From assembly GCF_030013595.1 (NCBI RefSeq), contig NZ_CP122768.1: 64,000 nt of DNA; one strand, written 5' to 3'. Source of the DNA: Escherichia coli. GTDB taxonomy: Bacteria; Pseudomonadota; Gammaproteobacteria; Enterobacterales; Enterobacteriaceae. Position numbers: made by a program. Every line of letters starts with the position of its first letter. Within the stretch, counting starts at the first letter, position 1. Positions 6,001 to 9,000 of this stretch are shown in pieces.

Positions 6001-9000
6001 GTTTAGCTGGTACTGAGTTCCATTTCGAGTCAGATACGAAAGCATCTACTATGTTGCCAGCATTCATTACGCCACCTCATTCAGCAGAGCCTGAATGCGC
6101 GCTTCACATGCTTTTAGCTCACGATCAATCACACTCAACTCGCGTGGTGGCACGTATTGGTAGAAATAGCGGTTAAAGTTAATTTCATAACCGACAATGC
6201 CCACTTCGCCGTCTTTTTCATCACGCACTGAGTGATCAATAAAGGCATCCGGTACATGTGGCAGCACCTCTTGTGCGAAGTAATCTTCAACGTCGCGGTC
6301 AAAAGGAATGCTTTCGGTGTCTTTGAGTTTAGGGTCGGCGATCACTTGGCCTTTTTCATCCAGTGCAGGCTCAAATTGCGGATCAATTTTTACAAAGTGC
6401 GCAGTTAAGGCCGTAGCCAGTGCTTTTGAGCACTTACCAAAGTCACCCTTATTGTTATTCTTCTTAACCGCCAAACGTGCCCATTCATAAGGCTGAAGGC
6501 CAAGGTTATCGGTGAGGTATTGTACCCATGCCGCTTGTTGCTCTGGTTTGAGTTTTTTAAACGTATCTTGCTGCACAAATGCAGCAATGCCCGCAGCGGT
6601 AATATCTAGTTTGGCACGCAGTGGACGCTGAATGGTGACTTTACGGTAGGCAAAATCAGTAGTCTGGAAGATCTTACAGTTGTCACTGGCTTCAAAGCCA
6701 TCGTACGCACGGACAATATCGTCAATCTGTTCATCACTCAGGTACTTGCGCTTATCGCCTTGCGATTTACGCATGGGAGTCCAAATATCTGCCAAGTTAA
6801 TCAGTTGCACCTGATTCTTGCGTCTTGGCTCTTTATGGTTAGTCAAAATCCAGATGTAGGTGCCAATGCCGGTGTTGAAGAACATATCGGTTGGCAGGGC
6901 AACAATCGCTTCGACTAAGTCTTGTTCTAGCAGCCAACGGCGGATTTCTGATGGGCCTGAGCCTGCATCGCCATTAAACAGTGGCGAGCCAGAAAGGACT
7001 ATACCCACTCGGCCACCACCATTTTCCGGCGTTTCCATTTTTGATACCAAGTGCAGTAAAAACAGCATTGAACCATCAGAAATACTCGGCAGGCCTGGCC
7101 CAAAGCGTCCGGCGTATTTGAGCTGTTTGTGCTCACGTTCTACTTCTTTCTTGGCTTTTTCCCACTTAATGCCAAATGGCGGGTTGGCAAGGCCGTAGTG
7201 AAACTTGTCGGCACGTAACTGATCGTCTGATAAGGTGTTGCCTTGCTTGATGTTATTGGCATCAAAACCGCGGATCATCATATTGGTCAGCGCCATGGCA
7301 TGGGTCGCGGGGTCGAGCTCTTGACCAAAAGGCACGACTTTAGCGCTGCTGCCCATTTCTTCAATTTGGCTAATGGCATCGGAAAGGAAACCGCCCGTGC
7401 CACAGGTTGGGTCATAGATGGTGCGGATCACACCCTTTTCACTAAAGATATCTTCATCCGCCGCCAGCACCAGTTTGGTGGCAAGACGCACGGCATCACG
7501 CGGGGTCATAAATTCCCCGGCCTTTTCATTAACCGAACTGGCGAACTTTAGAATCAGCTCTTCATAAGCATCTGATAATACGCGGTCAGACACTACATCA
7601 GGATGCAAGTCGAGGTTGGCAAAATGGTTTACCATGCGATACAGCAACTTGGCTTTTTCCAGATCTTCTATGGTTTGACCAAATTTAAACTCATCAAAGA
7701 TGGTACGAACGTTTTTGCTGAACTGGCTGATGTAGTGTTCTAGGTTGTCGCCGGTGTCTGACGCGCCTAAGGTTTCTAGGCTATATTCACTGGTGTTGTA
7801 AAAGGCGAATCCCGCAATTTCTGGCAACACTAAACCAAGGTCTATGCCGGATTGTTTTTCGGCCAGATAGAACTTACGAACTTCCTCACGGGTGGGTTCT
7901 AACACGCATTCAATACGACGCAGTAGCAAAAATGGCAGGATAATCCGCGCAAAATCGGTGTGTTTGAAATCACCCCATAAATCATCTGCCATACGCCAAA
8001 TAGCACTGGAGAGTTTGGCGCTTTGTTCTTTGTCTTGTAAGTTCATTGATACTACCTAAATGAAGTTAAATCGTTAAAAAATCAGTGTATTGTTTGGTTA
8101 TTATTTTGCGTTCTAGCTAAAGATGGCTTGCCAACGGCAAAATGCAGAACGATGTCTGTCGGTCCATTGGGTGCAAATAACATAGGTTTTTTCATCTCGC
8201 TGGGCCACTTTAGTGGTGGAGTAGCGGTTTCGCTCTTTGGCATCTTTGGCTGCACTGCGAATGTCTTCTGGCCGTGATGATTTAGCCAGTTTGAGCACGG
8301 GGAATGACAACCCAAAAATGTTGCGACAATAGGTTAGCTGCGTGAGGTTTTCTATTTCACTCAGTGGTAGAGCATGTTCAACCAAGTCTTGGATAGCTTC
8401 GGTTATCTCTGCATTGCTGATATTGTGTTGCGTTTGTGCAACTTCCCGTGTCTCTACTTCATTTTCAAGAGCAACAGAAAACGGAAAACCTTTGGCTTGA
8501 ACGGATTTAGCTAAAAAGACGTTAATAGCCTGCTCAATAGGTAAGCCCAACTCAGCAAAGATACTCGTGGCTTTTTCAAGCAGTTGAGGGTCTATATTGG
8601 TTGCCTTCATATGACTCACAAAACCTACAAATTGTAATTTTTGTATCCTATAGGCTTTGCATTTTCACGGCTAGCAATAAAGTCAAAAAATGAGAAATAA
8701 TTGATCTTAAAAAACTTAAAACAGGCTAACAAATCAGCAGTTACACTTGTCATGCCCTGCTAGTGAGAGGATCTTATCACTTTCGATATTGATGCAATCA
8801 GGTGCCGCGATAGAGGAAGCTTGGTCAGGTAATGGTGCCAACTTACTGATTTAGTGTATGATGGTGATTTTAAGGTGCTTGCGTGGCTTCTGTTTCTATC
8901 AGCTGTCCCTCCTGTTCAGCTACTGACGGGGTGGTGCGTAACGGCAAAAGCACCGCCGGACATCAGCGCTATCTCTGCTCTCACTGCCGTAAAACATGGC

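Follow-up and report, generated by a model that had tools for sequence, protein, structure and literature searches.

A RelB/DinJ-labelled protein with a ribbon-helix-helix head and an uncharacterised C-terminal domain as a probable regulator of defence operons in Escherichia coli and related bacteria

A stretch of 64,000 nucleotides from Escherichia coli (NCBI RefSeq assembly GCF_030013595.1, contig NZ_CP122768.1; hereafter the window) carries, directly upstream of the type I restriction-modification (RM) gene hsdM, a gene whose product begins like a RelB/DinJ antitoxin, and the question that this locus raises is what an antitoxin-like protein does at the head of a defence array. The product, WP_000648433.1, bears the RefSeq label 'type II toxin-antitoxin system RelB/DinJ family antitoxin' and is here called RHH-CTD, after its ribbon-helix-helix (RHH) head and its C-terminal domain (CTD). 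RHH-CTD is most likely a defence-operon regulator composed of an antitoxin-type RHH and an uncharacterised domain, mis-annotated as an antitoxin; taken as a whole, we consider probable the model in which it heads the operon as a transcriptional regulator, most likely an autorepressor. The gene and its control region comprise the following elements, all on the minus strand:

8113..8610, minus strand: coding sequence of RHH-CTD, 165 residues plus stop codon (WP_000648433.1)
8470..8610, minus strand: RelB/DinJ-type RHH, residues 1-47, the predicted DNA-binding and dimerisation domain, ending in a GFPF motif (profile matches and AlphaFold 2 model)
8425..8469, minus strand: variable linker, residues 48-62, predicted disordered (predicted local distance difference test score, pLDDT, <50 at residues 46-60; alignment columns variable and gapped)
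8116..8424, minus strand: CTD, residues 63-165, with the signature N-R-Y-S-T ... C-x-Q-W-x-D-R-H-R ... R-W
8624..8650, minus strand: putative operator, TAGGATACAAAAATTACAATTTGTAGG, with two direct TACAA half-sites and an inverted TTGTA (alignment of 13 loci)
8651..8703, minus strand: conserved upstream promoter block with TTGACT at 8681-8686, marking the start of the putative portable module (blastn to L009, L017, L018 and L001)
8047..8112, minus strand: spacer between the regulator gene and hsdM, 66 bp

The longest open reading frame (ORF) spans 8113-8619 on the minus strand, beginning at GTG 8619 and closing with the stop codon at 8113-8115; ATG 8610 is the start in RefSeq and in all homologues, with the protein opening MKATNID, and the likely coding sequence is 8113-8610. 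In Pectobacterium brasiliense (P0004; L001 8001-8546), the deposited 181-residue annotation begins within the operator (ATGATACAAAAATTACAATTTGTAGG...), and the true start is almost certainly the downstream ATG (MQATKID...).

The RelB/DinJ-like head recognised in the initial annotation is borne out by matches to NCBIfam TIGR02384 (E=1.7e-10, 41 bits), to Pfam RelB over residues 7-70 (E=4.6e-5) and to PHROG 2737 (E=1e-10), and by comparison of the family profile with the PDB, which returned three DinJ structures (4q2u, 4ml0 and 9lew) at E=0.003-0.005. The best-scoring of these alignments, to E. coli DinJ (4q2u and 4ml0), cover DinJ residues 9-53 only, comprising the RHH and the (G/A)(F/L)PF motif, and the part of DinJ that wraps around YafQ is not covered by the family profile alignments. 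The AlphaFold 2 model places the helices of the head at residues 8-20 and 25-40.

Beyond the linker, the same modelling predicts a compact CTD over residues 66-165 (pLDDT ~90), with an alpha3-beta-alpha-beta2-alpha topology comprising three helices, a strand, a helix, a beta-hairpin and a last helix. The tail had been described as unrecognised, and it remains so after single-sequence and family-profile searches of the ~100 residues, which gave no significant match in Pfam, NCBIfam, PADLOC or PDB sequences; Pfam matched none of 20 diverse members over the CTD itself. Structural comparison found the CTD unlike any known DNA-binding fold, with NikR appearing only as a non-significant Foldseek match (E=2.2). 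The last 62 residues carry a net charge of +7. A relationship of the CTD to SeqA was suspected, tested and rejected.

A search of 5.8 billion proteins recovered 53 relatives, nearly all of 160-170 residues, with 95-100% query coverage and 50-99% identity, from Vibrio, Photobacterium, Shewanella, Aeromonas, Pectobacterium, Dickeya and Lonsdalea. When 26 of these were aligned, 39 positions spread over both domains proved invariant and only the linker (~47-62) variable; for the CTD of the close family, 30 invariant positions were counted. The initial annotation had allowed that the fusion might stem from a sequencing frameshift joining a normal DinJ to a separate gene, or that the locus might be a decayed toxin-antitoxin (TA) module; both are ruled out because the two-domain protein is conserved at full length in the 53 homologues and both domains are modelled as folded, the fusion being the conserved state. 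Judged by this conservation, RHH-CTD is a two-domain family and not a broken TA remnant.

The control region is conserved together with the protein. The three half-sites of the putative operator lie at -35, -26 and -20 from the ATG, the first being fused to a -10-like TAGGAT (8645-8650) whose TAnnAT pattern is invariant across loci (TAGGAT, TAATAT, TAAGAT, TAGTAT etc.). The TACAA/TTGTA element keeps its position and sequence in 13 of 13 aligned loci irrespective of the cargo behind it, with the palindrome slightly expanded in Aeromonas and Lonsdalea (TACAAAC-TTACAAAA-TTGTTTGTTGTA); a more distant relative, the P0054 locus, has related TACA/TGTA palindromes at the same place. Half-sites number 3 per 60 nt, where the background in these loci is 0.05-0.18, and the 21-nt operator core occurs a single time in the window at <=3 mismatches (0/100 shuffles). 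Repeats that straddle the -10-like hexamer and the 5' untranslated region of the RHH gene's own promoter have the classical signature of autorepression, which here is read from sequence.

An IS1 element lies upstream, 208 bp from GTG 8619 and 217 bp from ATG 8610, in agreement with the ~210 bp first reported, and was thought perhaps to have displaced the native promoter. This is contradicted by the conserved promoter/operator block (~8624-8700), which lies intact and entirely between IS1 and the start codon and is common to the IS1-free Dickeya, Parashewanella, Shewanella and Vibrio loci. The blastn homology to IS1-free loci of Dickeya, Parashewanella, Shewanella and Pectobacterium starts at window position 8676-8703 and continues through the gene, and therefore the module comprises ~90 nt of promoter/operator plus the coding sequence, all on the gene side of IS1.

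Downstream, the distance of 66 bp to hsdM on the same strand, given in the initial annotation, holds for the spacer between the RHH-CTD stop codon and the hsdM ATG at 8046. No terminator-like site was found in this spacer (8047-8112), so that co-transcription of the RHH-CTD gene with hsdM is likely; the equivalent gap measures 0-14 nt, or gives way to an overlap, in other loci. The genes around the module are:

6067..8046, minus strand: hsdM, type I RM methyltransferase, first cargo gene (PADLOC MTase_I, E=1.9e-243; TIGR00497)
4781..6067, minus strand: hsdS, specificity subunit, 1-nt overlap with hsdM
1545..4781, minus strand: hsdR, restriction subunit, 1-nt overlap with hsdS
991..1545, minus strand: kwaA (Kiwa), 1-nt overlap with hsdR (PADLOC KwaA, E=9e-16)
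149..991, minus strand: kwaB (Kiwa, DUF4868), 1-nt overlap with kwaA (PADLOC KwaB, E=7e-14)
1..113, minus strand: 5' end of rhuM (PDC-S05 defence candidate), last gene of the array, continuing beyond the window
8828..9595: IS1, 768 bp, upstream of the module, at the junction with a Tn21-like mer/integron region

The hsdM-hsdS-hsdR-kwaA-kwaB succession has the layout of one operon headed by the RHH-CTD gene, with the rhuM ATG 35 nt past kwaB. The 1-nt overlaps couple kwaA and kwaB (149-1545, minus strand) translationally to the 3' end of hsdR, and a single upstream control region therefore appears to drive expression of Kiwa together with the type I RM system. The kwaA and kwaB products are unnamed by NCBIfam.

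The surroundings of the gene were viewed in ~20 distinct loci, from which the association with defence genes is drawn, and the cargo was named with PADLOC. In every locus viewed, the RHH-CTD gene is the first of a same-strand array, and the next gene follows after 0-70 nt or overlaps its stop codon, as in the Vibrio loci, where the RHH-CTD stop codon overlaps the start of the next gene; larger distances separate the two only in L018, where hsdM follows after ~520 nt, and in L025, an outlying relative (~270 nt). At least seven cargo types occur behind it, all with PADLOC matches:

The window and Vibrio islands L016 and L021: type I RM, then Kiwa (KwaA/KwaB), then RhuM (PDC-S05)
Shewanella L018: type I RM methylase (hsdM)
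L002-5, L010-14 and L020 (V. parahaemolyticus and relatives, Lonsdalea, S. sairae): SNF2 helicase, DUF4391, N6/N4 methylase, PARIS-like AAA_15/DUF4276 pair and type III-like Res
Aeromonas L006: HEC-03B/HEC-03A plus RNA ligase
Parashewanella L017: PDC-S06, then Septu (PtuA/PtuB)
L025, locus of the more distant relative P0054: PDC-S41, beside AbiEi_2 and Fic genes
Dickeya L009 and Pectobacterium L001: RhuM alone

None of the loci viewed, IS1-free islands included, holds a RelE/YafQ/ParE-type gene. In the window, neither side of the RHH-CTD gene has a RelE/YafQ-type ORF or room for one, the 208 bp from IS1 to the ORF being too short for a RelE-sized gene; the lack of an adjacent toxin reported at the outset thus extends to the homologous loci. 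Besides, the intact island of Vibrio sp. ES.051 (L016) reads mnmE, integrase, a small unannotated reverse-strand ORF, a replicative-helicase-like gene, an AlpA-like helix-turn-helix (HTH) gene, the RHH-CTD gene and hsdMSR-kwaAB-rhuM. The idea that IS1-free homologous islands might preserve an upstream partner finds no support in this comparison, by which the E. coli copy lacks no partner gene.

The cargo itself carries traces of exchange. The Pectobacterium locus (L001), beside mnmE, retains, between the regulator gene and rhuM, 36 nt from the 5' end of hsdM and 98 nt from the 3' end of hsdR; in the Parashewanella locus (L017), remnants of rhuM-5' and hsdR-3' separate PDC-S06 from Septu. Cargo has therefore been repeatedly replaced while the regulator and operator stayed. 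The scars, at L001 8645-8742 and 8929-9053 and at L017 13046-13286 and 15724-15799, derive from the 5' end of hsdM, the final ~130 nt of hsdR and the opening ~113 nt of rhuM. The Parashewanella Septu genes, enclosed by an hsdR 3' scrap and a rhuM 5' scrap, occupy the slot that belongs to Kiwa in E. coli. This arrangement points to replacement of cassettes through recombination at conserved gene ends.

Two further arrangements were observed among these loci. In Vibrio parahaemolyticus and relatives (L003-L005, L010, L011; 1371-7879), a BrxR (WYL) gene and a Wadjet/Mks (JetABCD-like) cluster lie directly before the RHH-CTD-headed SNF2/methylase/PARIS/Res cluster, with two regulator types side by side in the island, one before each cluster. 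Aeromonas bestiarum (L006 8586-11239) has, between nuoN and purL, a four-gene islet without mobility genes, comprising RHH-CTD, HEC-03B, HEC-03A and an RNA-ligase-family protein; the latter lies outside the PADLOC HEC-03 model and may be an extra HEC-03 component.

Head position before defence arrays and a conserved operator thus support the controller-like regulator of the RM/defence operon proposed in the initial annotation. In the mechanism that we propose, RHH dimers would bind the TACAA-N4-TACAA-N1-TTGTA element, which overlaps the -10-like hexamer and lies 20-35 nt before the start codon, and the bound RHH would throttle transcription of its own gene and of the co-directional hsdM-hsdS-hsdR-kwaA-kwaB, probably with rhuM. 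The CTD, on its flexible linker, would act as the regulatory module, either (i) sensing a general infection or DNA signal and releasing repression, or (ii) assembling RHH dimers into a higher-order complex for cooperative filling of 3-4 half-sites. Promoter, operator and regulator would together form a portable unit behind which defence cassettes are swapped, each coming under the same control. On entry into a new host by island mobilisation, one burst of expression would give way to a low level under the island's own repressor, and with hsdM first in order the methylase would be made before the nuclease.

Several observations weigh against this model. The close family is rare, ~100,000 species-representative genomes yielding 7 loci, of which 6 are full-length and the seventh matched over the RHH head only. 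The 41 bits of the RHH fall below the curated TIGR02384 cut-off of 45.65, and an AlphaFold run of a linked dimer reproduced the CTD fold but gave the RHH a pLDDT of ~50 and no confident RHH dimer. The promoter is assigned by conservation: a simple sigma-70 scan found no canonical promoter on the minus strand, and the putative -35 is weak, with TTGACT 30 nt from TAnnAT. In addition, distant relatives in which a Phd or HTH head precedes the CTD lie on contigs <5 kb with unannotatable neighbours, so that their contexts are uninformative.

The role of the CTD can be approached through its wider distribution. A CTD-only profile search of 1.84 billion cluster representatives returned 364 proteins at E<=0.001, 34 of them at E<=1e-10, in which the domain is almost always C-terminal and the residues conserved throughout are R-Y, (C/S)-x-Q-W and a final W, extended in the close family to N-R-Y-S-T and C-T-Q-W-T-D-R-H-R-x-A-F-x-R-W. 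About a third of the matches listed (51/147) are small proteins with a head of 30-110 residues, by inspection most commonly Phd/YefM-like, otherwise RelB-like RHH, excisionase-type HTH_17 or Arc/MetJ-like RHH. The CTD is also found on HNH nucleases matching PtuB and type IV restriction endonuclease (REase) models, on KAP NTPases matching PifA and QatA models, and in two N-terminal copies on the McrB-like AAA+ restriction protein P0058, and it co-occurs with DUF6946, DUF3427, DUF1413 or a SeqA-C-like domain. Because it is found on interchangeable small DNA-binding heads and on defence effectors, as WYL is, the CTD may be a sensor or signal-receiving module, and to the particular idea that it is a signal sensor we give clearly less than an even chance. 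A role as homotypic adaptor to a cargo protein was considered and rejected, a broad CTD hidden Markov model finding no second copy in six-frame ORFs of the window or of L001-L026.

In a group of large uncharacterised proteins of 500-650 residues (P0197, P0132, P0128 and P0188), a SeqA-C-like segment, with a Pfam SeqA match at E=8.7e-7 in one of them, is joined to a single or double CTD and to additional C-terminal regions; these proteins may be methylation-state readers in defence contexts.

A bolder and distinctly tentative proposal is that the CTD is an undescribed immunity sensor domain and a counterpart of WYL, forming with RelB, Phd, Arc or HTH_17 heads an unrecognised class of defence-island regulators and, on HNH, McrB-like or KAP NTPase proteins, coupling the signal directly to an effector. 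RHH-CTD and its operator would then be a portable 'regulated promoter cassette' that defines the cargo slot in MGIVchHai6-type islands and chromosomal islets.

The alternative that survives best is itself a variant of the autorepressor model, in which the CTD reads modified, hemimethylated, single-stranded or foreign DNA and the protein serves as a methylation- or foreign-DNA-sensing switch or as a bridging factor, in place of a repressor controlled by a ligand. The paired CTD copies on the McrB-like P0058, the placement of the CTD behind HNH nucleases matching type IV REase/PtuB models, its co-occurrence with SeqA-C-like and DUF3427 domains, the latter described as a modification reader (PMC6765204), and the charge of +7 over the last 62 residues, with conserved R, K, H, Y and W, are what such a role would lead one to expect. 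On the other hand, the CTD has no structural similarity to known DNA-binding folds, a second reader is not obviously needed where DUF3427 or SeqA-C is already present, and the methylation-independent cargo (Septu, HEC-03, Kiwa) argues that the signal is not specific to one RM system. We regard this variant as unlikely, while giving it more credit than the remaining alternatives.

A genuine type II antitoxin, whose CTD neutralises a downstream toxic protein such as RhuM while the RHH autoregulates as in DinJ-YafQ, would account for the homology of the RHH to DinJ/RelB, for the antitoxin-first gene order and for the two-gene RHH-CTD plus RhuM units without integrase, RhuM standing directly behind in Dickeya and Pectobacterium and at the array end in the window, L016 and L021. 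However, the CTD hardly varies from locus to locus, whereas the downstream partner is exchanged entirely, and the toxin-binding C-terminus of DinJ is absent. The Aeromonas HEC-03 locus has no RhuM in the sequenced stretch, nor do the Lonsdalea, Vibrio SNF2 and PDC-S41 loci as far as they are sequenced, the sequence ending before the array does. Moreover, the RhuM-only locus of Pectobacterium is a deletion derivative that keeps its hsdM-5' and hsdR-3' fragments, and RhuM/PDC-S05 is a single-gene PADLOC candidate mostly found without an RHH-CTD protein. Taken together, these points make the antitoxin reading improbable.

Fainter still is the prospect of a boundary or recombination accessory factor of the Xis/TraY RHH type that promotes cassette exchange. 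The gene does stand precisely where the conserved island backbone gives way to variable cargo, with its mosaic of cassette scars. Yet neither a dedicated recombinase nor recurrent recombination sites flank the cassettes, the gene is also present in small islets without mobility genes, the repeats are placed like those of an operator, at the promoter and start codon, and the scars are explicable by ordinary homologous recombination and deletion. Hardly credible at all is a functionless orphan or decayed antitoxin hitch-hiking beside RM genes, which would fit the missing toxin, the RefSeq name 'antitoxin' and the RelB score under the curated threshold, but not the persistence of both domains at full length in Escherichia, Vibrio, Photobacterium, Shewanella, Aeromonas, Dickeya, Pectobacterium and Lonsdalea, the equally conserved operator, or the membership of the CTD in a large conserved domain family.

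Regarded as an autorepressor, RHH-CTD can be compared with several known systems. The closest functional precedent, by analogy, is RptR, a 79-residue single-domain HTH repressor that binds TAGCTA palindromes and whose gene directly precedes hsdM in a type I RM-DarTG island (Zhang et al., Nucleic Acids Research 2025, PMC12255303). Both are small proteins encoded immediately upstream of and co-directionally with hsdM, in a type I RM locus with an embedded second defence system, and both also stand before non-RM modules in Gammaproteobacteria; RptR represses the island promoter via short repeats. As judged from the published description of RptR, RHH-CTD is set apart by its 165 residues, its RHH head with a domain of ~100 residues, and its TACAA/TTGTA repeats; on that description the two are unrelated families and independent solutions.

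The defence regulators BrxR and CapW, with a winged HTH (wHTH)-WYL-WCX architecture (PMC9122601, PMC9122589, PMC9122588, PMC11662680), likewise combine a DNA-binding head with a sensor domain beside many defence systems, WYL being also fused to other defence proteins, and their derepression on an infection or DNA-damage signal (single-stranded DNA) offers a model for the possible action of the CTD. Unlike BrxR, which is usually transcribed divergently or separately, RHH-CTD is encoded by the first cistron and has an RHH as its head, and Pfam detects no WYL, BrxR or wHTH match on the RHH-CTD protein or on the CTD alignment.

DinJ/RelB antitoxins share the homologous RHH (residues 3-47 aligned with DinJ 9-53), the (G/A)(F/L)PF motif, the first place in the operon and the expected autoregulation through promoter repeats, whereas RHH-CTD, at about twice the length, has an unrelated folded domain in place of the toxin-wrapping segment and has no YafQ/RelE partner. 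NikR, an analogy only, also joins an RHH head to a separate C-terminal regulatory and oligomerisation domain controlling operator binding, but the CTD is not the ACT-like nickel-binding domain of NikR. The C proteins of type II RM systems are small regulators at the head of an RM operon that time and limit expression after entry into a new host; they are Xre-type HTH activator/repressors acting with C-boxes, in contrast to the RHH head, the extra domain and the type I RM or non-RM cargo of RHH-CTD. A search of open-access papers and bioRxiv for the RHH-CTD protein, its accession, the CTD, its domain combinations and RHH-type defence regulators found nothing on this family.

The genomic setting places the E. 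coli copy on a mobilisable element. The first 8.8 kb of the window matches the E. coli 2009C-3133 chromosome at 100% identity and is present at >=99% identity in 76 of 5,426 complete E. coli genomes, always on the chromosome; a plasmid collection searched with the RHH-CTD gene region gave no match. In 2009C-3133 (L015, NZ_CP013025.1 2305481-2315456), the array is followed by rhuM and mobI(A/C). A rhuM-like gene beside mobI is the distinguishing mark of MGIVchHai6-type islands. These insert at trmE/mnmE, are mobilised by IncC plasmids and have been described with cargo of the type I RM or BREX kind (PMC4958241, PMC7449626), in two papers that do not discuss the RelB/DinJ-like gene. By gene content and order, window 1-8830 is a fragment of an MGIVchHai6-type mobilisable island, mobI(A/C)-rhuM-kwaBA-hsdRSM-regulator.

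IS1 lacks a target-site duplication, since its 9-bp flanks differ (8819-8827, GCTTGGTCA, against 9596-9604, CCCCGGACG); the element stands at a rearrangement junction, with the island on one side and the Tn21-like mer/integron block on the other. In E. coli 2009C-3133, the far side of the same IS1 carries IS5075, a Tn3-family transposase and intI1.

The control of defence islands is poorly understood, with few characterised regulator families, including C proteins, BrxR/CapW, CapH-CapP, CapK-CapS and RptR, and to these RHH-CTD adds a candidate family that is directly testable, with a sharply defined putative operator and two separable domains. Its sensor-like CTD is an uncharacterised domain with no solved structural relative, present in hundreds of defence-associated architectures, and proteins of ~165 residues labelled 'RelB/DinJ family antitoxin' beside defence genes are probably mis-annotated. 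The island being a mobilisable element linked to antimicrobial resistance, the regulator could affect the outcome of phage therapy and the uptake of plasmids.

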